A DNA stretch of 64,000 nt from Calditrichaceae bacterium (GCA_050173015.1 JBFXLE010000009.1:32001-96000), one strand, 5' to 3'. Numbered from the stretch's first letter, positions 48,209 to 59,734 are shown. Notes: generated by a model from the sequence alone, not told the origin. Numbers and translations: made by a program.

Positions 48209-50881
48209 ATGTCAGAAAAATTTGTTTATAAATTCGGGGCAGGAAAAGCAGACGGTAACGCGGGTATGAAGTTATTACTCGGCGGAAAAGGTGCGAATCT
48301 TGCTGAAATGTCTAATCTGGACGTCCCTGTACCACCGGGATTTACCATATCAACGGAAGTTTGTACTACATTTTACGCAAACGACGGAAAATATACCGAT
48401 GATGTTAAGAAACAGGTGATGGAAGGTGTGAAACACATCGAAAAAGAAATGGATTCTGTTTTTGGTGATTCAAAAAATCCTCTTCTGGTGTCTGTTCGGT
48501 CAGGCGCGCCTGCTTCGATGCCGGGTATGATGGATACTGTTCTCAATCTGGGTTTAAACGATGAGACGGTTAAAGGAATTATCGAACAATCCGGTAACGA
48601 GAGATTTGGATGGGATTCATACCGCCGTTTTGTACAGATGTATGGTGATGTGGTGATGGGTATGAAACCGGAATCGAAAGAAGAGGAAGATCCGTTCGAG
48701 GTGATTATCGATGAAGTCAAAGAAAAACGAAATGTGACGAATGATACCGATTTAACGGCGGATGACTTAAAAGAATTGGTTTCACTTTTCAAGGCAGAAA
48801 TCAAAAAAAGAACGGGCTCCGAATTCCCCACCGATCCCTGGGTCCAGTTATGGGGTTCCGTCAGCGCGGTTTTTGGGAGCTGGAATAATAATCGGGCGAT
48901 TACCTACAGAAAACTTAATAACATCCCGGCGGACTGGGGAACAGCAGTCAATGTCCAGGCGATGGTCTTTGGAAATATGGGCGATGATTGCGCCACAGGC
49001 GTTGCTTTCACCCGTGACCCTGCCACCGGAGAAAAAAAATTTTACGGTGAGTATCTGATCAATGCCCAGGGTGAAGATGTTGTGGCCGGAATCAGGACGC
49101 CGCAGCCGGTTAATGAATCGACAAAGAGTGATCCAACCCATAAAACACTTCAGGAAGTAATGCCGACAGCTTACGCTGAACTCGAATCGATTTACAAAAA
49201 TCTTGAAAATCATTACAAGGAAATGCAGGATATCGAGTTTACGATCCAGAGAGGACGTTTATGGATGCTCCAGACACGCACGGGTAAACGTACCGCTGCC
49301 GCCGCTGTGCGTATTGCCGTTGAGATGGTGGATGAAGGCATGATTGACAAGAAAACAGCTTTAAAAAGAATTGAACCAAATCAGCTGAATCAGTTACTCC
49401 ATCCAACATTTGATCCAAAAGCGAGCAAAACTGTCATTGCGAAAGGGTTGCCCGCCTCTCCCGGAGCGGCGACTGGACGTATCGTGTTCCATGCGGATGA
49501 TGCTGAAGAATGGGCAGAACGTGGAGAATCTGTTATTCTCGTAAGAATTGAAACATCGCCGGAAGATATCGGCGGTATGAATGTTGCCAAGGGTATTCTA
49601 ACGGCCCGCGGCGGTATGACCTCACACGCGGCTGTGGTGGCGCGTGGAATGGGTAAGTGCTGCGTCGCCGGTAGCGGTGCATTGAGAATCAACTATAAAG
49701 AACAAACGATGACCGTGGACGGCAACGTTTATAAAAAGGGCGACTGGATTTCGCTCGACGGATCATTAGGTGAAGTAATTGAAGGAAAAGTACCCACTAC
49801 CCAACCGGAACTTTCGGGTAACTTTGGCAAATTAATGTCATGGGCTGATGAGGTAAGAAGATTAAAAATACGCACCAACGCGGATACTCCGCATGATGCC
49901 GGTGTGGCCCGCGATTTTGGCGCTGAAGGTATCGGTTTATGCCGTACCGAACACATGTTCTTTGAAGGTGATCGGATCAAGGCGGTCCGGGAAATGATTT
50001 TGGCGGAAGATGAGGCCGGAAGACGCAAGGCGCTTGATAAATTGCTTCCTTATCAAAGAGATGATTTCTATGGAATTTTTAAGGCAATGCATGGACTGCC
50101 TGTGACCGTAAGAACGCTTGATCCACCCCTGCATGAGTTCCTGCCTCACGATGATGATAATCAAGCGGAGATGGCCAAAGAGATGGGAATCAGCCTGGAA
50201 GAAGTCAAGGCGAAAGTTGATGCTCTTCATGAGTTTAACCCGATGCTTGGTCATCGTGGCTGCCGTCTTGGCATATCCTATCCTGAAATTACTGAAATGC
50301 AGGCCCGCGCTATTCTGGAAGCTGCCTGTCAGCTAACAAAGGAAGGCATTGAAGTTTATCCGGAGATCATGATTCCTCTGATTGGAACGAAGGCTGAACT
50401 GGCAAATCAAAAACAGGTGGTAGTAAGAGTTGCCGAAGAAGTTCAGAAGGAGATGAATGTTAAAGTCGCCTATTTGGTAGGAACGATGATTGAAATCCCG
50501 AGAGCCGCGCTCACGGCGAACGAAGTAGCCGAAGAAGCGGAATTTTTCTCATTTGGTACCAACGATCTTACACAGATGGCTTTCGGATTTAGTCGTGATG
50601 ACGCCGGAAAATTCCTGAAAGAATATGAGGATAAAAAAATCCTGCCGCAGGATCCGTTCCAGACCCTCGATCAGAGTGGTGTCGGACAGCTCGTTGAAAT
50701 GGGCCTGAAAAAAGGACGTCAAACCAAACCGGATCTGAAGGTCGGGATTTGCGGTGAACACGGCGGCGATCCAAAATCCATTGAGTTCTGTCACCGGGTG
50801 GGATTGAACTATGTAAGTTGTTCTCCTTACCGTGTACCAATAGCGCGTCTGGCAGCCGCTCAGGCCGCTCTGGATAAATAG
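48209..50881 (+). CDS. ppdK: Pyruvate, phosphate dikinase
   Basis: [17 protein letters not shown], phospho-His motif [29 protein letters not shown]; 890 aa. Confidence 0.98.
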
Positions 50882-50893
50882 CTGATTCAACAA

Positions 50894-50926
50894 AAAAGCC
50901 ACCGTTTTTGACGGTGGCTTTTATTT
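50894..50926 (+). terminator. Intrinsic terminator after ppdK
   Basis: AAAAGCCACCGT-TTTTG-ACGGTGGCTTTT followed by ATTT. Confidence 0.85.
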
Positions 50927-51064: not shown

Positions 51065-52054
51065 ATGAAAAAAATTCTCCTTGTCCACACCGGCGGGACC
51101 TTTGGAATGGTGCCCGCGGAGCCGAAAAGTATCCTGGCGCCCGGAAATTTTCAAAGCCAGATCCTGATAAATGTTCCGGAAATTGTCCGTATCGCGGATA
51201 TAGATGTTGAAATACCATTCAATCTTGACAGTTCCAATATCGGGATCAATGAATGGCAAATTCTCACAGAGTTAATTCACGCGAGAATGGACGAATATGA
51301 TGGGTTTGTTATCATCCATGGCACAGATACAATGGTTTACACGGCGGCAGCCCTTTCATTTACTTTGAGAAATCTCAATAAACCGGTGATCCTTACCGGG
51401 GCGCAGCGTCCATTGTCAAAATTGCGCTCCGATGCCAGGACAAACCTGATCGATGCCGTGGAACTGGCTACTCTGGATATTTTTGAAGTGCTTATCGTTT
51501 TCGGTCAAAAGATTGTTAGGGGCAGCAGGGCAAAAAAAGTGAGTATCAGCAGCTATGACGCGTTTGAATCGCCTAATTTTCCTTTAATAGGGGAAATAGG
51601 TCTCAAGATCAAGTTAAACCAACTGCTTTTGTACAAATCCGTTGAAAAATACAGTTTTCTTCCCGGTTTCAAACAAAAAGCGCTGATTATAAATATCGTG
51701 CCTTCACTGAATCCCAAATATTATTTTCCTTTGTTGGAAAATGACTTGGAGGCATTTATTCTGGCCGGTTTTGGAGCCGGTAATCTCCCAAATACGTCGC
51801 CGGATTGGATACCGTTTATACAAAACGCGACAAAGCTGGGCAAATCAGTTTTTATCTGTAGCAATTCAATGCATGGTTCTGTAGATTTATCATTGTATGA
51901 AAGCGGTCAGAAAGCGCTTGAAGCGGGCGCGGTGGGGCTTGGTGATATGACAATTGAATCAGCCTATGTAAAATTATTGAAAATACTGAATATAACGGAT
52001 ATCCCGGGAGAAATAGTAACTCTCATGAATGAAAACTGGGCGGGTGAAATCTAA
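51065..52054 (+). CDS. ansA: Type I (cytoplasmic) L-asparaginase
   Basis: HTGGTFGM and HGTDTM catalytic Thr motifs, LTGAQRP, GFGAGN; no signal peptide. Confidence 0.92.
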   Translation: MKKILLVHTGGTFGMVPAEPKSILAPGNFQSQILINVPEIVRIADIDVEIPFNLDSSNIGINEWQILTELIHARMDEYDGFVIIHGTDTMVYTAAALSFTLRNLNKPVILTGAQRPLSKLRSDARTNLIDAVELATLDIFEVLIVFGQKIVRGSRAKKVSISSYDAFESPNFPLIGEIGLKIKLNQLLLYKSVEKYSFLPGFKQKALIINIVPSLNPKYYFPLLENDLEAFILAGFGAGNLPNTSPDWIPFIQNATKLGKSVFICSNSMHGSVDLSLYESGQKALEAGAVGLGDMTIESAYVKLLKILNITDIPGEIVTLMNENWAGEI

Positions 52055-52055
52055 C

Positions 52056-52985
52056 ATGTGGCATATTTTCAGGAAAGAATACGCGAAAGTTGTTTTCTCA
52101 TCAGATTACATTTATGGACTTCCCACTTCAGGCGATCATCAAACTTTTGATATCATGAAGTACAAAAAGATAAGAGATAAGTTGGTCGCGAAAAAACTGT
52201 TGAAAAGAAGAAATGTCCTGCGGCCTGATTTGTGTTCATATGAGGATCTTAAACTTGTTCATACGGAAAAATACCTGAAATCTTTGCAGGATCCGCAAAA
52301 TGTCAGTCAAATTCTGAAGCTCGGAATTGTTAATCCCTGGGACAATTTTATATTGGAATATTTCAGGGCTGTGACAGGCGGTACCTTAATGGCGACGGCT
52401 TATGCTCTGAAATGGAACAAGCCGACATTTAATCTGGGCGGTGGATACCATCATGCGCACCCGGACAAGGCGGAGGGATTCTGCCTGATCAACGATGTCG
52501 CGATTGCCATACAGAAATTCCGGCATTTGCACCGCGCCAGGAAATTTATGATTATTGATCTTGATTACCATCAGGGGAACGGCAATTTACTTTATTTTAA
52601 GGACGATCCCGATGTTTTCACATTTTCCATGCACGCGAATACCTGGGTGGAGATCGAAGGAAGGTGGAATCAGGATATTCTGCTTCCCGAAAACTGTGAC
52701 GATGACACATATCTTGAAATTCTCGAGCAGCAATTATCGGAATCATGCATGGCTTTCAAACCGGACGCGGTCTTCTACATTGCCGGGTCCGATCCGTATG
52801 AAAAGGATATGCTCGCGGATATGAAATTAACGCGCGAAGGAATGCTGAAAAGAAACCTGTATGTGTATCGAAAAGTGAGAAAACGGAATATACCTTTGAT
52901 TGTGATAGCCGGAGGAGGCTATGGAGCGGATAGCTGGGAAGTATATTATGATTTTCTTGAATACTGTTTACAAAATAAATATTGA
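52056..52985 (+). CDS. Zn-dependent histone deacetylase-family (AcuC/AphA-like) deacylase
   Basis: GGGYHHA, GFCLINDVAIA, DLDYHQGNG, AGSDP, GGGY. ATG 52056, just after the ansA stop, is preferred over 52029. Confidence 0.92.
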   Translation: MWHIFRKEYAKVVFSSDYIYGLPTSGDHQTFDIMKYKKIRDKLVAKKLLKRRNVLRPDLCSYEDLKLVHTEKYLKSLQDPQNVSQILKLGIVNPWDNFILEYFRAVTGGTLMATAYALKWNKPTFNLGGGYHHAHPDKAEGFCLINDVAIAIQKFRHLHRARKFMIIDLDYHQGNGNLLYFKDDPDVFTFSMHANTWVEIEGRWNQDILLPENCDDDTYLEILEQQLSESCMAFKPDAVFYIAGSDPYEKDMLADMKLTREGMLKRNLYVYRKVRKRNIPLIVIAGGGYGADSWEVYYDFLEYCLQNKY

Positions 52986-52997
52986 AATGAATAAAAA

Positions 52998-53900
52998 ATG
53001 AGTTTTAAAATACAAAAAAAATATTGGCAGGTTGCTAAAAAACTAACAACCGCGCAATTACAGAAGGAAAATTCCGACCAGTCTTTCCTGATGGAAGAAG
53101 ATTTTTTTAACATAGATATTGGGAAGAGAGGGCATAGCTTTTTTCTGGGATATTATTCAAAGGCGGGAATTGAACTCGCATTGGAAAAATATGATGTTAA
53201 GAAAATTCTAAAAGAGAAGGGATTCGAAAAACTTGTCCTTAATTTGGATACAAACGATCCCTACAGACACCGGTTAACGGTCTATGATAAGGTTCAGGAA
53301 CCGGACAAAATGCTGTTTGAGCTGATTCTGAAGAAAGAACGGATCCAGATCGATATGCCGTTCAGGACTGACCTAAACGGCAAAACATTTGAGACAATTG
53401 CGATTGAATGGATGTGTATGCAAAATCCATACAAAGATTTCACACCCGAAAAGCCCATATTGCCGGGTCAGCGATTTCCCGGTTTGGGGATGGCCTCAAA
53501 AGCGGTCGAATTGCTCATAATAATTTCCTGGCGCTTGAAGCTGGCCGGCCTGGTGAATATTCCACAGCATTTTCATAATGCCTGCCTCTATTCGAAGGTG
53601 TTTTATTACATAGATCCCCTGGATCAGGCAAAGCTGCTGGCCATGATAAGAGATACAAAAATCTATCCTCTTGAGAAGGTGGCCTGGGCAATGGAGTATG
53701 GAGCTATTACTGATTTGAATACCGGTCAGCCCGCAGAGTGGTTTGTTTCCAAACAAATTATACCGCTTGATTCCCAACTGAAAAAATTATTTAATTCAAG
53801 AGCATACAGGCAACTGGTGAAAAAGGAAGTTCAAAATTATAAATACAAACTGGACATACAAAAATATCTCGATGATGAAAAAAACAGGAGTACCAGATGA
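52998..53900 (+). CDS. Conserved hypothetical protein with GNAT-like acyl-CoA-binding motifs
   Basis: 300-aa ORF inside the operon; QRFPGLGMA fits GNAT motif A (R/Q-x-x-G-x-G/A); HNACLYSKVF resembles motif B. The fold assignment is inference. Confidence 0.6.
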   Translation: MSFKIQKKYWQVAKKLTTAQLQKENSDQSFLMEEDFFNIDIGKRGHSFFLGYYSKAGIELALEKYDVKKILKEKGFEKLVLNLDTNDPYRHRLTVYDKVQEPDKMLFELILKKERIQIDMPFRTDLNGKTFETIAIEWMCMQNPYKDFTPEKPILPGQRFPGLGMASKAVELLIIISWRLKLAGLVNIPQHFHNACLYSKVFYYIDPLDQAKLLAMIRDTKIYPLEKVAWAMEYGAITDLNTGQPAEWFVSKQIIPLDSQLKKLFNSRAYRQLVKKEVQNYKYKLDIQKYLDDEKNRSTR

Positions 53901-54460
53901 AGTTAAAAGCGACACAATTGCGCAAAGGAATGATCATTATATATAACGATGACCTCTATGTTCTTACCGATGTCATGCATGTTACCCCCGGAAAAGGTCA
54001 GGCCTCCGTTCAGACAAAAATGAAAAACATTAAGTCCGGTACCAACGCGGAAAACCGGTTCCGTTCGGATGAGACCGTTGAAAAGGCAAATTTAGAAAAT
54101 CGTGTCATGGAATATCTGTACGATGACGGACAGCATTATTATTTTATGGACAAGGAAACGTTTGAGCAGATTCCTCTTAGCTCAGAATTGTTGGGTGACG
54201 CGCATCTTTACATGCTTCCGAATATTTCAGTAGATGTGAGTTTTTATAATACTGAAGCCATTGGTGTGGATTTACCGAATACAGTGGATCTGAAAGTTGT
54301 TGAGACCGAGCCGACAATGAAAACGGCGACCATCACATCCTCTTATAAACCCGCGACACTGGAAACAGGTCTCAAAGTGCAGGTGCCGCAGTTTATATCG
54401 GAAGGTGAAGTGATCCGAATAGATACGCGTGACGGGAAATATCTCGAAAGAGCAAAATAA
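53897..54460 (+). CDS. efp: Translation elongation factor P
   Basis: HVTPGKGQA loop (Lys33), YFMDKETFEQ, KPATLETG, VPQFI, IDTRDGKYLER; AGGAG RBS. Confidence 0.98.
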   Translation: MKLKATQLRKGMIIIYNDDLYVLTDVMHVTPGKGQASVQTKMKNIKSGTNAENRFRSDETVEKANLENRVMEYLYDDGQHYYFMDKETFEQIPLSSELLGDAHLYMLPNISVDVSFYNTEAIGVDLPNTVDLKVVETEPTMKTATITSSYKPATLETGLKVQVPQFISEGEVIRIDTRDGKYLERAK

Positions 54461-54468
54461 TATTTCTT

Positions 54469-54500
54469 AATACCGGGTGGTAATGCCCGGTATTTTTTTT
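54469..54500 (+). terminator. Intrinsic terminator after efp
   Basis: AATACCGGG-TGGTAATG-CCCGGTATT followed by a T-run. Confidence 0.85.
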
Positions 54501-54611
54501 CCTGAATTCTCAAGATGTGTTCATTTTCTGTGAACTTCATTTGATATCAGAATAATAATGTTTCCGTATAGAATGTAATTTTATCGAAAATATTGAACGG
54601 AAGGCTCTGTT

Positions 54612-55958
54612 ATGTCCCGCTCAACCAAGTCAACCTTTATTTGCGCCGCCTGTGGATATCAAACCCAGCGCTGGTTGGGAAGATGTCCCGAATGCATGAG
54701 CTGGAGCAGTCTGGAAGAACATATCGAAAAAAGCCCGTCAGGCAATAAGGGTGACCGACCAATCCAAGCGGTTGAGCTCATCCCTTTAACGGAAAAAAGA
54801 AACACGAATGAAATTCGTGTGCGGACGGGTATTTCAGAGCTTGATCGAGTACTCGGGGGTGGAATTGTCCAGGGGGCGCTCATCATGATCGGTGGTGATC
54901 CCGGTATCGGAAAGTCCACGATTATGCTGCAAATGTTAAACAAAATTTCGGTCAGACAAAAAAGTGTCTACATTTCGGGCGAGGAGTCTCTTGAACAGAT
55001 ACAGGACCGGGCGGAACGAATTGGATTTGATAACAAGAATATCTTCTTCCTGAGTGAAACAAATATCGAAAATATGACCGGGTTGCTGGAAAAAGAAAAT
55101 CCCGCTCTGGTCATTATCGATTCCATACAAACGGTCAGCAGTGAAGAAATTGATGGCATTCCGGGAAATAGCAGCCAGCTTCGGTACTGTACGGCGAAAC
55201 TGCAATATTTCGCGAAATACAACAACATTCCGGTGTTTATCGTGGGCCATGTGACAAAAGACGGATCCATTGCGGGGCCAAAAATCATTGAACACATGGT
55301 GGACACGGTTCTCTATTTTGAGGGGGACAATAATCATGATTACAGGATACTGCGATGTATCAAAAACCGATTTGGCGCCGTAAATGAGATCGGAATTTTT
55401 CAAATGCAGAAGACCGGACTTGAACCGGTCTCTAATCCTTCTGAATTGTTCTTGAATAGCGGGGAACATGATCGTCAGGGAACCACCGTCATTGCCGTTA
55501 TGGAGGGAAACAGGCCGTTGCTGGTGGAGGTTCAGGCGCTGGTGACAAAAACACAGTTTGGGATGCCGCAGCGGACCTCGACCGGATTTGATCAGCGAAG
55601 GATTAATCTTTTACTTGCCGTGCTGGAGAAAAAATACGGCAAACCCTTTGGATTTCATGATGTCTTTATCAAAACTGCCGGCGGATTACGCATTGATGAA
55701 CCGGCCGCGGATCTGGGTATTTGCATGGCCTTGTTATCCAGCCTCCAGGAAAAGACGACTGATCACCAGACTGTATTTATCGGCGAGGTTGGATTAAATG
55801 GCGAACTCCGCGGTGTGAGTTCTCTTCAGGAGCGCGTTAGTGAAGCCGAAAAGCTGGGATTTAAAAACATCGTTATCCCGCGAGTAAAGAAATCTCCCGC
55901 AGTAAAAAAATCAAAACTTTATCAAATCTCGAAATTGGATGAAGTTTTCAACCACTAA
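54612..55958 (+). CDS. radA: DNA repair protein RadA/Sms
   Basis: Zn finger CAAC...CPEC, Walker A GDPGIGKST, KNRFG motif, Lon-like C-terminus. Confidence 0.98.
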   Translation: MSRSTKSTFICAACGYQTQRWLGRCPECMSWSSLEEHIEKSPSGNKGDRPIQAVELIPLTEKRNTNEIRVRTGISELDRVLGGGIVQGALIMIGGDPGIGKSTIMLQMLNKISVRQKSVYISGEESLEQIQDRAERIGFDNKNIFFLSETNIENMTGLLEKENPALVIIDSIQTVSSEEIDGIPGNSSQLRYCTAKLQYFAKYNNIPVFIVGHVTKDGSIAGPKIIEHMVDTVLYFEGDNNHDYRILRCIKNRFGAVNEIGIFQMQKTGLEPVSNPSELFLNSGEHDRQGTTVIAVMEGNRPLLVEVQALVTKTQFGMPQRTSTGFDQRRINLLLAVLEKKYGKPFGFHDVFIKTAGGLRIDEPAADLGICMALLSSLQEKTTDHQTVFIGEVGLNGELRGVSSLQERVSEAEKLGFKNIVIPRVKKSPAVKKSKLYQISKLDEVFNH

Positions 55959-56136
55959 AAATTTACATCCGGCCGCCCCCGGCAATATATCCTAATTGTA
56001 TGATGTCATTATGGCGCACTAATAAGACATTTGTTCCGATAAATTGAAATACTGACATGTTTACTGTCTTGACAATTTTTAATGTGAGTATTGTTAAATT
56101 GATTAATAATAGGCATTTATCAATATATTTGCGACT

Positions 56137-56153
56137 TTGGCACGCATATTGTC
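56137..56153 (+). promoter_or_regulatory. Sigma54-like promoter upstream of hsp20
   Basis: TTGGCAC-GCATA-TTGTC versus consensus TGGCAC-N5-TTGC (-12 C replaced by T). Confidence 0.55.
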
Positions 56154-56209
56154 TAATATAATATCAAACTAATGATAATTGATAGATAATATCAGTAAAG
56201 GGAGGCAGT

Positions 56210-56644
56210 ATGAATATGTTAAAATTAAATCCGATCGGAAATTATATTTCACCGTCGCGTCAAAATGAGCACATATTAAATGATTTTTTTGGTACAGAAG
56301 TCGGTGATAGTCGTTTTCAGGATTTCCAGCCACCGGTGAATGTGCTGGAAAACGATGACGCGTTTATTATGACTTTTGAAATTCCGGGTATTGCAAAAAA
56401 GGATGTGAATATTACTTTTAAAGATGATGTGTTATCTGTCAGCGGAGAGAAAAAAATCGACAATAAAGCTGACAAAGCGGTTTTCCATCGCTTTGAAAGA
56501 AAAAATGGCAAATTCCAACGAGCATTTTACATCAATGAAAAAATTGACCCGGAAGGTATCGACGCATCCTTCAGAGACGGAATTCTGACGATAGTATTAC
56601 CCAAAGCGGAAGAAGCGAAACCGAGAGAAATCAAAGTAAATTAA
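56210..56644 (+). CDS. Small heat-shock protein (Hsp20/alpha-crystallin)
   Basis: PPVNVLE, EIPGI, LSVSGEK, FERKNGKFQRAF, ASFRDGILTIVLPK, C-terminal IKV; GGAGG RBS. Confidence 0.96.
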   Translation: MNMLKLNPIGNYISPSRQNEHILNDFFGTEVGDSRFQDFQPPVNVLENDDAFIMTFEIPGIAKKDVNITFKDDVLSVSGEKKIDNKADKAVFHRFERKNGKFQRAFYINEKIDPEGIDASFRDGILTIVLPKAEEAKPREIKVN

Positions 56645-56666
56645 TATCATTTTATTGAATTCAAAG

Positions 56667-56695
56667 AAAAGCAGGTCATTGTACCTGCTTTTTTT
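56667..56695 (+). terminator. Intrinsic terminator after hsp20
   Basis: AAAAGCAGGT-CATTGT-ACCTGCTTTTTTT. Confidence 0.85.
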
Positions 56696-56821
56696 GTTTA
56701 TAAATCGGAAAAGTTGAGTCATGATTAAAATTAGTTGCGGAATATAAACCTATTTATGTAACTTAATAGCAATATAATCATAAACTTTAGATGATGTTCA
56801 ACTAATGGCAAAGGAAATTAT

Positions 56822-56974
56822 ATGAACTTTGGGTTAACCGAATTAATCATCATTTTTGCAATTATTATTCTTTTATTCGGAGCAAAAAGGCTGCCTGATC
56901 TGGCGAAAAGCCTTGGATCCAGTATCAAACAGTTCAAAAAAGGCGCCAGTGAAGACGATGAGGAAGAAAAATAA
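56822..56974 (+). CDS. tatA: Twin-arginine translocase TatA/E subunit (50 aa)
   Basis: Hand translation [52 protein letters not shown] helix, FG hinge, amphipathic helix; AAGGA RBS. Confidence 0.93.
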
Positions 56975-57045
56975 AACGACATCTGTCGTTCTGGCATAAT
57001 TTACTAATCAATCCTTCCTGAAATACATTCCTGTATACTCAACAG

Positions 57046-57058
57046 AATCAATAAGTTA
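57046..57058 (+). promoter_or_regulatory. IHF-like site upstream of the clpB sigma54 promoter
   Basis: AATCAATAAGTTA matches WATCAANNNNTTR exactly. Confidence 0.5.
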
Positions 57059-57072
57059 CGTGTTTAATTCGA

Positions 57073-57089
57073 TTGGCATTGTTATTGCA
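57073..57089 (+). promoter_or_regulatory. Sigma54-type (-24/-12) promoter upstream of clpB
   Basis: TTGGCAT-TGTTA-TTGCA, with GG and GC at canonical spacing. Confidence 0.7.
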
Positions 57090-57121
57090 GCTCCTGAAAA
57101 TAAACTATTATGGAGGTTGGA

Positions 57122-59734
57122 ATGAATTTTGAAAATTATACGATTAAAGCTCAGGAGGCTTTACAAAAGGCGAGTCATATGGCCGTTGAAAATGAGCACC
57201 AGCAAATTGAACCTGAACATTTGTTAAAAGCGCTGATAAGCGATGCGGATGGCGTTGTCAGCGCTACCATAAGAAAATACGGTGTCCCGATTGATTTGAT
57301 AATCAATAAACTTGATGAAACGTTTAAAAATATGCCCAGAGTTTACGGCGGATCGACCGGTAATGCCTATTTTAGTGACCGTTTACAGAGGATTTTTCGT
57401 GAGGCGGGCAATGAAGCTCACGCATTGCATGATGATTTTATAAGTACTGAGCATTTGTTTATTTCGATAAGCGCGGAAAGAAACGGAAGCGCGGCTGAAA
57501 TATTAGGTTCAGTTGGTTTAAACAAAGAGATGATCCTAAAAGCGCTTCGTGAAGTCAGAGGAAATCAGCGTGTAACGGACCAGAATCCAGAAGCAAAATA
57601 TCAGGCCCTGGAAAGATACAGCAAAGACCTGACAAGGTTGGCATACCAGGGAAAACTAGATCCCGTCATTGGTCGTGACGAGGAGATTCGCAGGGTGTTG
57701 CAGGTACTCTCGAGACGCACCAAGAATAATCCGGTTTTGATTGGTGAACCGGGGGTTGGCAAAACCGCGGTTGTTGAAGGCATTGCGCACAGAATTGTCA
57801 ATGGGGATATCCCTGAAAATTTGAAAGATAAAAAAATTGTAGCGCTGGACATGGGAGCTCTCATCGCGGGCGCAAAATTCAGAGGAGAGTTTGAAGAGCG
57901 TCTAAAAGCAGTGTTAAAAGAAGTTGTCGAATCCCAGGGTAAAATCATCCTGTTCATTGATGAACTGCATACACTTGTTGGGGCGGGAGCGGCCGAGGGC
58001 GCGATGGACGCTTCCAATATGCTGAAACCGGTTTTAGCAAGAGGCGAGCTGAGAGCGGTCGGCGCCACTACGATTAATGAATACAGAAAATATATTGAAA
58101 AGGATGCCGCGTTTGAAAGAAGATTTCAGCCGGTTTTAGTGGAAGAGCCGTCAGTCGAAGATACCATATCCATCTTGCGCGGGCTCAAGGAAAAATATGA
58201 GGTTCATCACGGGGTACGGATTCAGGATTCAGCGCTGGTGTCGGCGGCCGTTTTGTCTCACCGCTATATCTCCGACCGCTTTCTTCCTGACAAAGCCATC
58301 GATCTTGTGGACGAAGCCGCGTCTAAATTGAGGATTGAAATTGATTCTATGCCTGAAGAACTGGACGATGTGGAGAGAAGAATTAAACAACTCGAAATTG
58401 AAACGGTTGCTTTAAAGAAGGAAAAAGATAAGGTTTCTGCTGAACGGCTTTTAGTCGTCAAAAATGAGATTCGCAATTTGAGTGAATCCTCGGCGCGGTT
58501 GAAAACCCAGTGGAAGGCGGAAAAAGATATCATTCAATCGATTCGGAGTCTGAAATCAAAAATCGATGAATATAAGAGTGAAATGGAAAAATCCGAGCGT
58601 GACGGAGAATTAAACCGGGTCGCTGAAATTCGCTATGGCCGTATTCCGGAAGCAGAAAAAGAATTGCTTCAGTTGAATGAAAGGCTGTCGGAGTTGCAAA
58701 AAACAAAAAAAATGTTGAAGGAGGAAGTGGGAGACGAAGATATCGCTGAGATAGTATCAAAATGGACGGGAATTCCCGTCAGTAAGATGCTGGAAAGCGA
58801 AAAAGAAAAATTACTGAAAATGGAAGACAGAATGGAAGAACGTGTGATCGGGCAGCATGAAGCGGTCGTATCCGTATCAAACGCCATTCGAAGATCCAGA
58901 TCCGGTCTGAGCGATCAGAACAGACCAATCGGTTCTTTTATCTTTTTGGGTTCGACGGGAGTGGGTAAAACGGAGCTGGCAAGAGCACTGGCGGAATTTT
59001 TATTTGATGACGAAAACGCCATGATTAGGATAGACATGTCCGAATATATGGAGAGTCACAGTGTGTCCCGTCTCATCGGCGCTCCACCCGGATATGTAGG
59101 ATATGATGAAGGGGGCCAGCTCACCGAGGCCGTTCGCCGGAAGCCCTATTCCGTAATTCTGCTCGATGAAATTGAAAAGGCTCATCACGATGTTTTTAAT
59201 ATTCTGTTACAGGTTCTTGATGACGGGCGGTTGACCGATAATAAGGGTAGAACGGTAAATTTTAAGAATAGCATAATCATTATGACCTCCAATCTGGGCG
59301 CTCAGTATATCAGGGAGCGAACCGATGAACTGGCAGGGTCAGATACAGAGATGATTTATGAAGAAATTAAGGTAAAAGTGTTTGATATCCTGAAACAGAG
59401 CCTGAGACCGGAATTTTTAAATCGTGTTGATGATATTATAGTGTTTCATGCTTTAAGCAGGGATAATCTCAGAGAAATTATACGGATACAATTTAGTCTC
59501 ATTCAAAAATTACTGGTGGAAAAAGGACTGAGCGCGGAACTTTCCGACAGGGCGGTAGACTATCTGATTCAAAAAGGGTATGATCCGGCTTTCGGAGCAA
59601 GGCCATTGAAACGCCTGCTGCAGAAGGAAGTCGTGGATCAGCTCGCGAAAGAACTAATCGCCGGTAACATTGTCCAGGGTGATCAATTTAAGATTGATTA
59701 CGATTCTGATAAAATAACTTTTCAAAAAAACTAA
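57122..59734 (+). CDS. clpB: ATP-dependent disaggregase ClpB
   Basis: Two Walker A motifs ([16 protein letters not shown]), long coiled-coil middle domain, [12 protein letters not shown] 57122 follows a GGAGG RBS. Confidence 0.98.

Follow-up and report, generated by a model that had tools for sequence, protein, structure and literature searches.

We examined a window of 64,000 nucleotides (the whole 64-kb stretch G000:C9:32001-96000; source genome 97.5% complete) from a Calditrichaceae bacterium, in which a Zn-dependent deacylase of the histone deacetylase (HDAC) type and an unannotated 300-aa protein, here named UNK (52998-53900), are encoded between ansA and efp, the gene for elongation factor P (EF-P). 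In the open reading frame (ORF) map of the window, the four genes are same-strand (+) ORFs at 51065-54460. We find that the HDAC and UNK genes are inherited together and that UNK, as judged from its predicted structure, is the founding and previously unnamed member of a divergent GNAT-fold family. The system is of the reversible acylation type and is built on this new family. That UNK has a GNAT fold and that HDAC and UNK form a functional module we consider highly probable; that the module writes and erases acyl groups on protein lysines is a tentative proposal, which we hold at somewhat less than even chances; and EF-P, the target put forward in the first-pass annotation of this DNA, is unlikely to be its dedicated substrate.

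The proposal that HDAC and the unknown protein form a pair is borne out by gene adjacency in Calditrichota and by gene fusion in other phyla. We searched 86 Calditrichota genomes, which are kin so that the counts are not independent, and found UNK in 76 of them (50 of the 53 high-quality ones), almost always as one copy. In 68 of these 76 genomes HDAC is the gene immediately 5' of UNK, with both on one strand. In four others (G005, G033, G046, G083) the matching HDAC is on a different contig from UNK, consistent with an assembly break, and G024 holds only a fragment of UNK. Neither gene was found in seven genomes (G028, G039, G053, G054, G060, G063, G069), and two (G061, G067) have no UNK and only an HDAC of 33-34% identity. 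Among the 150 best of the 1167 representatives of the UNK family, 30 proteins exceed 480 aa, and Pfam splits them into 10 HDAC-UNK proteins, 12 Usp-UNK proteins, one UNK-AMP-binding protein and seven without a second domain. Single-chain HDAC-UNK fusions are also present in a Myxococcota locus (L057) and a Krumholzibacteriia locus (L084), and in an Acidobacteriota locus (L068) HDAC adjoins UNK. In the fusions HDAC is always N-terminal and UNK C-terminal. We conclude that the HDAC and UNK genes are inherited together.

The first-pass annotation had called the unknown protein GNAT-like, and both structural searches returned GNAT chains, at modest scores. The AlphaFold2 (AF2) model of UNK, built on the family alignment, has a pLDDT of 90.9 and a pTM of 0.85. 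The Foldseek list for this model is headed by the GNAT chains 7byy, AtaT, KacT and TmcA, with probabilities up to 1.00, and its matches comprise bacterial GNAT toxins, TmcA and N-terminal acetyltransferases. With VIA-align, NatD (4ua3_B) matches best (Z 8.2, rmsd 4.1 over 149 aligned residues), and of the 50 listed matches 41 bear the titles of acetyltransferases or tRNA-acetylating toxins. UNK carries the motifs QRFPGLGMA (158-166) and HNACLYSK (193-200). In GNAT proteins, the canonical motif A/P-loop Q/R-x-x-G-x-G/A precedes helix alpha3 and binds the CoA pyrophosphate; in UNK, Q158-R-F-P-G162-L-G164 (Q-x3-G-x-G) stands immediately before helix 166-179, at the place that this loop occupies in GNATs. 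Across 151 UNK sequences, Q158 and G162 are 100% conserved, W138 and P156 99% and H193 97%, and N194 and Y198 of the HNACLY motif fall below 85% in the wider family. On the agreement of Foldseek with VIA-align and on the motif geometry, we accept that UNK has a GNAT-like core fold, at middling scores. With this predicted fold, UNK would use acyl-CoA.

The HDAC is intact and HDAC11-like, as had been proposed. It matches Pfam Hist_deacetyl (PF00850) with 178.3 bits (E 2.9e-52, cut-off 27.9) and has the motifs GGGYHH (128-133), DLDYHQGNG (168-176), AGSD (243-246) and GGGYG (286-290); all motifs quoted beforehand for HDAC, UNK and EF-P are found in the translations. The protein carries H132-H133, D170, H172, D246 and Y289, which by analogy to HDAC8 we take to be the His pair, the Zn ligands (Asp, His, Asp) and the catalytic Tyr, respectively. 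As no catalytic or zinc-binding residue is missing, we accept it as an intact class IV HDAC. In a search of all solved chains, its best relative is the 9gz5/9rjd sequence (E 1.5e-56, 195.3 bits, residues 26-296), and all four motifs lie within the alignment to 9gz5; the next relatives are 9rje (124.8 bits, E 4.3e-35) and 9gkv (101 bits), and chains of HDAC6, HDAC8, HDAC1 and HDAC2 score at most 97 bits. By these scores and by GGG[YF]HH in place of the RPP motif, the window HDAC is closer to class IV than to class I or II. To our knowledge, activities have been measured for bacterial class IV deacylases, and neither physiological substrates nor partner writers are known for them. The sequence 9RJD is the clade-B class IV HDAC (HDAC11) of Leptospira interrogans and 9RJE belongs to clade A (PMC13325672); by score order against the solved chains, the window HDAC would be clade-B-like. 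According to the same paper, clade B enzymes are active on acyl-lysine peptides, and the basal bacterial ones prefer groups from acetyl up to octanoyl on peptide lysines, whereas clade A enzymes showed no peptide activity and nonpeptidic targets have been proposed for them (PMC13325672). The motifs GGG[YF]HH and GGY have been described for cluster 5/HDAC11 enzymes, in which they go together with an extended foot pocket and with long-chain deacylase activity (PMC11532494).

UNK escapes sequence-based classification. It matches no Pfam family at E ≤0.1 and no NCBIfam model, a profile of 36 members has no PDB sequence match at E ≤10, the Atlas lead to an Acetyltransf_1 cluster reaches only 0.79, and all 111 close relatives are unnamed or 'hypothetical'. 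The family is nevertheless large, with at least 486 loci (contigs, one genome per species) and 1167 representatives of 50%-identity clusters at E ≤1e-3, of which 633 match at E ≤1e-30. To judge from the titles of the records, its members come from Calditrichota, Marinimicrobia/Fidelibacterota, Myxococcota, Bradymonadales, KSB1, Bacteroidota, Acidobacteriota, Krumholzibacteriota, Thermodesulfobacteriota and others; the named relatives of the window UNK, such as the orthologue P0020 from Caldithrix abyssi, belong to Calditrichota. The family may extend to eukaryotes, as a 349-aa partial fungal protein (P0111, named at source as Leucosporidium creatinivorum) matches weakly (E 5e-7) and has the motifs LPGQxFPGLG and PFHFHNA in common with UNK. 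In four Calditrichota genomes (G019, G035, G036, G064) the UNK matches hold one or two in-frame stops and may be pseudogenes or assembly errors.

Partners other than HDAC fall into two main kinds. UNK is fused to ligases in L047, L077 and P0225, and in L072 and L074 two ligase genes lie downstream of it; all six ligases of the loci match best to the FadD11 fatty-acid-CoA-ligase model (405-438 bits against a cut-off of 950), and this ligase-linked branch (L047, L072, L074, L077, P0225) has no HDAC. Usp-UNK fusions have tandem Usp domains and make up the 12 of 30 long representatives mentioned above (one in the reversed order, UNK then Usp); they are also found in L038 and L046. The neighbours of stand-alone UNK genes (peptidases, MMPL, a selenophosphate-synthase-like fusion, thiamin pyrophosphokinase, RecJ and others) were too varied in the Marinimicrobia-type loci to yield a functional theme. 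We built a quick IQ-TREE phylogeny of 111 UNK domains with SH-aLRT support only, in which the labels for L008-L029 and L031 are given by range, even where a short contig shows part of the operon. In this tree, ligase-linked UNKs form one clade (support 100), most Usp fusions lie elsewhere and the stand-alone Marinimicrobia forms make up another clade. Because the tree separates HDAC-linked, ligase-linked, Usp-linked and stand-alone forms, the family has partner-specific branches. One record in the tree, L035, is titled 'Deltaproteobacteria bacterium' and is probably mislabelled because its UNK hardly differs from the one in the Calditrichaceae locus L037 (end branches 0.025 and 0.062) and the gene order is alike.

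As a working model, we propose that the HDAC-UNK pair is the functional core of the operon. UNK would transfer an acyl group from acyl-CoA to an amine, most likely that of a protein lysine, and the class IV HDAC would remove such acyl groups, so that the pair would set the acylation state of common substrates according to the supply of acyl-CoA, in the manner of AcuA/AcuC or Pat/CobB. We infer the catalysis by UNK, the acyl donor, proteins rather than small molecules as substrates, and the opposing logic of the two enzymes. To judge from the partners in other branches, the typical clients or regulators would be AMP-forming fatty-acid-CoA ligases and Usp proteins rather than EF-P; in the lineage of the window efp shares the operon, and EF-P would at best be one candidate substrate. 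The fallback in the first-pass annotation, that the pair acts on another target, fits these partners better than does EF-P. AMP-forming CoA ligases are classic targets of control by GNATs and deacetylases (PMC11619455, PMC4053389, PMC11255334), and a USP is a physiological substrate of mycobacterial MsPat (PMC8556138), both according to the available portions of these papers. The ORF map and Pfam place no AMP-binding gene in the operon at 51065-54460.

Several observations weigh against this model. In Calditrichota, one genome (G068) has UNK with only a 35%-identical HDAC, on another contig, and two (G062, G064) have UNK and no HDAC at E ≤1e-40. Three Marinimicrobia genomes with stand-alone UNK have only weak HDAC matches (E 1e-11 to 1e-13); UNK is not dependent on HDAC everywhere. 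In the tree, every HDAC-linked UNK falls in one group of 46 rows (SH-aLRT 88, not starred), and because of this the linkage may have arisen once and not several times independently. The AF2 model of the HDAC-UNK fusion P0256, built with 10 relatives, has a mean pLDDT of 82.8 and a pTM of 0.58; thus, it gives no confident packing of the two domains. Regarding the fold, the Pfam GNAT models (Acetyltransf_1, _7, _10 and others) match none of 36 UNK family members at E ≤1, no Foldseek match has an E-value ≤1e-3 (the lowest is 1.8e-3), a single chain reaches Z ≥8 in VIA-align, where models without a clear match commonly have a best Z of 7-8, and the P-loop-like motif has one residue more than the canonical form. 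Moreover, a writer and an eraser in one chain would run a futile cycle unless regulated, which favours explanations in which the two domains act in sequence or one regulates the other. Finally, the stop-start overlap of UNK and efp, conserved in 45 genomes, is unaccounted for if EF-P is a mere passenger.

The missing Pfam GNAT match, the non-canonical P-loop motif and the incomplete conservation of N194 and Y198 would suit a UNK that is not an enzyme but a GNAT-derived sensor of acyl-CoA or a substrate recruiter, which regulates or targets HDAC in a manner modelled on the inactive acyl-CoA-synthetase-like domains of Pat proteins that sense acetyl-CoA. Catalytically dead regulatory domains fused to bacterial acetyltransferases are indeed known, as described in PMC8556138. 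However, Q158, G162, H193, W138 and P156 are conserved in the 151 sequences beyond the needs of a binding module, and many genomes have UNK alone, with no close HDAC for it to regulate. We regard a non-enzymatic UNK as improbable.

The futile-cycle problem of the HDAC-N/UNK-C fusions would disappear if the two enzymes acted sequentially on a small molecule or lipid, with HDAC stripping an N-acetyl or other acyl group from an amine and UNK re-acylating it, a logic known from LpxC followed by LpxD and from MshB followed by MshD. In such a scheme, the acyl donor could in some lineages come from the FadD11-like ligases that are fused to UNK or lie next to it, and AnsA, an amidohydrolase, would belong to the same amide/nitrogen pathway; ansA lies 1-5 nt from HDAC or overlaps it in the window and in the relatives with a resolved HDAC start, a coupling for which the scheme would account. 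The lack of peptide activity reported for clade A class IV HDACs in the available part of PMC13325672 would agree with a nonpeptidic substrate, but the window HDAC is nearer to clade B (195 bits, versus 125 bits for clade A), which acts on acyl-lysine peptides. Moreover, ansA is absent from the HDAC-UNK loci outside the efp-coupled clade (L033-L037, L057, L068, L084), the surroundings of UNK in 55 loci show no recurrent biosynthetic genes, and the nearest structural neighbours of UNK are, by small margins, GNATs that act on proteins and tRNA. On balance, sequential action on a small molecule or lipid is rather unlikely.

A further neighbour of UNK in Calditrichota is efp. We scored the position of efp relative to the UNK match in the 76 UNK-bearing Calditrichota genomes, which fall into families f1-f8. 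In 45 of them efp starts at most 30 nt downstream of UNK, and these represent five families (f1 2/2, f2 1/1, f3 24/26, f4 9/9, f5 9/9). The distance is 31-500 nt in ten more genomes (nine of f7 and one of f3) and 0.5-5 kb in two (one of f6 at 1.5 kb and one of f7 at 3.2 kb). In 17 genomes efp is on a different contig from UNK (15 of f8 and two of f6), in the one-contig genome G082 (f8) the two genes are 378 kb apart, and efp was not found in G021, whose UNK match extends up to the end of its contig. Among 22 related loci that hold both the UNK stop and the efp start, the overlap of the two is 4 nt long in 14 and of another kind in six, while in one locus they abut and in one they are 20 nt apart, and this contact in 21 of 22 loci is kept although the C-terminal tails of UNK differ among the coupled loci. 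The tight coupling of UNK and efp is, therefore, real and conserved.

This coupling speaks for the idea that UNK places an acyl group on Lys33 or a different lysine in domain I of EF-P and HDAC takes it off, as a dedicated, stoichiometrically co-translated switch or an activating modification. The genome has a single efp, and in the window EF-P the loop is PGKGQ from residue 31 with Lys33 at the tip, that is, not the proline-flanked type that needs no modification; the full loop, PGKGQA, is that of E. coli EF-P. There are also precedents for acyl control of translation factors in the available portions of two papers: E. coli EfpL is switched off by acylation, which CobB reverses (PMC12856214), and AcuC, a classical deacetylase, has TufA among its substrates (PMC8556138). 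However, the pair is unlinked from efp in f8 (0/16) and mostly so in f6, and outside the Calditrichota clade the flanks of all 51 loci (L036, L038-L087) lack an efp match; these flanks were up to 6 kb long, with some contigs shorter. Two loci with non-Calditrichota labels, L034 and L035, have efp nearby, but they group within the Calditrichota clade. The gene-neighbourhood conservation with efp that was to be checked is, thus, confined to the Calditrichota clade, and separation of the pair from efp, named beforehand as evidence against the proposal, is what we observe in f8 and outside the clade. Moreover, because the efp-coupled UNKs form one clade in the tree (24 rows, support 99), the link to efp counts as a single evolutionary event, and because ppdK, upstream, shows the same degree of conservation as the operon, synteny inertia contributes to its persistence.

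The EF-P loop argues in the same direction. Six genomes have efp and no UNK was found in them (one of the six is 100% complete), yet the loop TPGKGQA is kept in four of the six, and it is also present in most genomes in which UNK is unlinked from efp. Conversely, Lys33 is lost in L019 (loop PGNWRA, efp at 2439-2999), where the ATGA coupling is kept, and PGNWRA recurs in the efp of G084 (L102). Several genomes (among L018, L020, L035 and L037) have the proline-flanked loop PGKGPA, including the coupled loci L018 and L020; EF-P with a loop of this type works without modification, according to the available part of PMC12856214. An obligatory activating modification of Lys33 by UNK appears unlikely because there is no tie to EpmA (see below), the loop is constant without UNK, Lys33 can be lost and PGKGPA occurs in coupled loci. 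By analogy, a regulatory acylation of EF-P is possible. Taking both sides together, we consider a dedicated EF-P switch unlikely. More speculative still, and quite unlikely in the full form given here, is the broader idea that UNK is the protein-lysine writer for HDAC11-type erasers with EF-P as a co-translated client in most Calditrichota, so that acyl-CoA status, by way of a reversible EF-P acylation, would tune polyproline translation; the acyl groups in question might be medium- or long-chain because UNK has fatty-acid-CoA ligases among its partners.

EF-P modifier genes often flank efp. The first-pass annotation had noted no epmA, epmB or earP nearby, and for EpmA and EpmB this extends to the whole genome at the model cut-offs. 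For EpmA (TIGR00462), the best whole-genome match scores 243.8 bits, below the cut-off of 286.9, and lies in a 501-aa frame of the size of LysRS. For EpmB (TIGR03821), two KamA-like genes score 251.2 and 235.7 bits against a cut-off of 369.3; we rejected them as EpmB, being below the cut-off and located in other gene clusters. For EarP (PF10093), there is no match in the genome, with the search also silent in all 14 control genomes. None of the 86 Calditrichota genomes has EpmA above the cut-off. This is compatible with a different modifier for EF-P; yet the anti-correlation between efp linkage and epmA that was anticipated does not exist because EpmA is missing whether or not UNK is present or linked. 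We also considered deoxyhypusine synthase and rejected it as a phylum-wide modifier of EF-P because it is patchy (38/86 genomes) and absent from genus g7 (0/9), which keeps the UNK-efp coupling. In the source genome, a gene of the deoxyhypusine synthase family (PF01916, 326.7 bits) lies on the minus strand at L111 1420-2460 (G000:C3:32821-33861), with uninformative neighbours (an epimerase and a transglutaminase-like protein).

AcuA/AcuC is among the known systems that come closest to the HDAC-UNK pair. We know of no AcuA-AcuC fusion, whereas HDAC-UNK fusions exist. In acuABC of Bacillus subtilis, a GNAT writer and a Zn HDAC eraser share one operon and the client is an AMP-forming CoA ligase, as described in the available part of PMC8556138; similarly, one UNK branch is fused or adjacent to AMP-forming ligases. 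In contrast, AcuC is class I-like and the window HDAC is class IV, UNK has no Pfam GNAT match, and the window operon contains ansA and efp but no ligase gene. The Pat-type enzymes (SePat/PatZ and the cAMP-GNAT proteins MsPat/MtPat) combine a GNAT with sensing domains, and their clients, AMP-forming ligases and USP, resemble the partners of UNK. They differ in that the five GNAT architectures set out in the available part of that paper carry NDP-forming synthetase-like, cAMP-, NADP- or amino-acid-binding domains (PMC8556138); the HDAC, Usp and AMP-forming-ligase fusions of UNK are not among these five, and UNK is not detectable as a GNAT by sequence. On the eraser side, HDAC11 of L. interrogans (9RJD) and human HDAC11 have the GGG[YF]HH and GGY motifs in common with the window HDAC, and the passages searched in the two class IV HDAC papers (PMC13325672, PMC11532494) make no mention of a partner acyltransferase, of fusions or of operon context.

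Regarding the established EF-P modifications (beta-lysylation by EpmA/EpmB/EpmC, rhamnosylation by EarP, and 5-aminopentanolylation), the window EF-P has a Lys tip and the genome has no EpmA or EpmB orthologue above the cut-offs; EarP acts on Arg-type EF-P, whereas the tip here is Lys. The acetylation of the EF-P paralogue EfpL is, in the available part of its description, mainly non-enzymatic, driven by acetyl-phosphate and inhibitory (PMC12856214), and we found no GNAT/HDAC pair acting on EF-P in the literature. More generally, our literature search, which covered papers in part and without supplements (including PMC13325672, PMC11532494 and PMC12931083), returned no description of the UNK family, of a pair or fusion of HDAC11 with an acyltransferase, or of an enzymatic acylation of EF-P. 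All bacterial protein acetyltransferases identified so far were recognisable GNATs according to a 2024 survey, as far as its available text goes (PMC11532494). Here, a family of 1167 representatives that is invisible to Pfam and NCBIfam is tied genetically to HDAC11-type enzymes, fatty-acid-CoA ligases and Usp domains. If UNK is active, it would constitute a new family of writers and provide the HDAC11 branch with a testable partner, and the coupling to efp in 45 species-level genomes offers a cheap test of whether an EF-P without a known modifier is enzymatically acylated.

In the window, the operon has clear boundaries. Upstream, a hairpin (GCCACCG/CGGTGGC) and T-run after ppdK, read from the sequence (50898-50926, +), shuts the upstream unit; the hairpin scan reports this hairpin on the minus strand only (50914-50899). 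Downstream, an intrinsic terminator with an 11-bp stem followed by a T-run (54469-54504, +; hairpin 54469-54494), found by both the hairpin scan and reading, ends the operon, and the common end at one terminator suggested earlier is, thus, confirmed. The first gene is ansA (51065-52054, +), which encodes a 329-aa protein of the type I asparaginase family (Pfam Asparaginase 9.2e-59 and Asparaginase_C 9.9e-19; 244.8 bits against the type I model TIGR00519, slightly below its cut-off of 260.5) and is single copy in the genome. Its stop codon TAA (52052-52054) is separated by 1 nt from the ATG of HDAC (52056-52985, +; 309 aa), a class IV (HDAC11-like) Zn-dependent deacylase as judged by Pfam, PDB relatives and motifs. 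A longer open frame is possible from an alternative start, the ATG at 52029, and an ATG equivalent to that at 52056 is present in nine related loci. The HDAC stop TGA (52983-52985) lies 12 nt before the ATG of UNK (52998-53900, +), the predicted acyl-CoA-dependent N-acyltransferase of the GNAT-fold family described above (AF2 model and fold searches). The UNK stop TGA (53898-53900) and the efp ATG (53897-53899) run into each other in an ATGA, and a Shine-Dalgarno-like AGGAG for efp, read from the sequence, is located within the 3' end of UNK (53886-53890, +), 6 nt 5' of the ATG. The junction sequences agree in all three cases with the gaps of 1 and 12 nt and the ATGA overlap originally reported.

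The last gene, efp (53897-54460, +; 187 aa, loop TPGKGQA with Lys33), scores 247.4 bits with TIGR00038, above the cut-off of 185.8, matches Pfam EFP_N, EFP and Elong-fact-P_C, and is the sole copy in the genome (one tblastn match). Because of the hairpin and T-run after ppdK and the terminator after efp, we conclude that the four genes constitute one bounded unit. We take ansA-HDAC-UNK-efp to be a single transcription unit whose junctions are translationally coupled. The layout is not due to chance because the gene order recurs in related loci and the UNK stop and efp start are in contact in nearly all loci that hold both. A promoter scan was uninformative, with 13 sites against 10.1 +/- 3.2 expected from shuffled sequence.

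Around the operon, ppdK (window 48209-50881) is conserved upstream in those related loci whose contigs reach far enough. The downstream region (54612-59734) contains a radA-like gene, a 144-aa ORF of the size and composition of Hsp20 and an 874-aa ClpB-like ORF, the last two named by eye; radA lies 3' of efp only in the closest relative, L008.

The two KamA-like genes lie in clusters of their own. In L088 (2367-7991; G000:C3:119366-124990), two genes of the ATP-grasp (D-Ala-D-Ala-ligase-like) type, a Pfam GNAT of 159 aa, a KamA-like radical-SAM aminomutase of 372 aa and a gene for a protein of 584 aa that ends in an HDAC domain (251.6 bits) are on the same strand, with a sigma-54 activator upstream; this cluster looks like a pathway for a beta-amino-acid peptide or an acyl-amine with an HDAC-type enzyme of its own. 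In L089 (2944-6561; G000:C1:193944-197561, minus strand), a KamA-like aminomutase of 451 aa, a sodium:solute symporter (SSF) and a 279-aa GNAT follow in a row, a layout that, as we take it, recalls the ablAB genes for N-epsilon-acetyl-beta-lysine.

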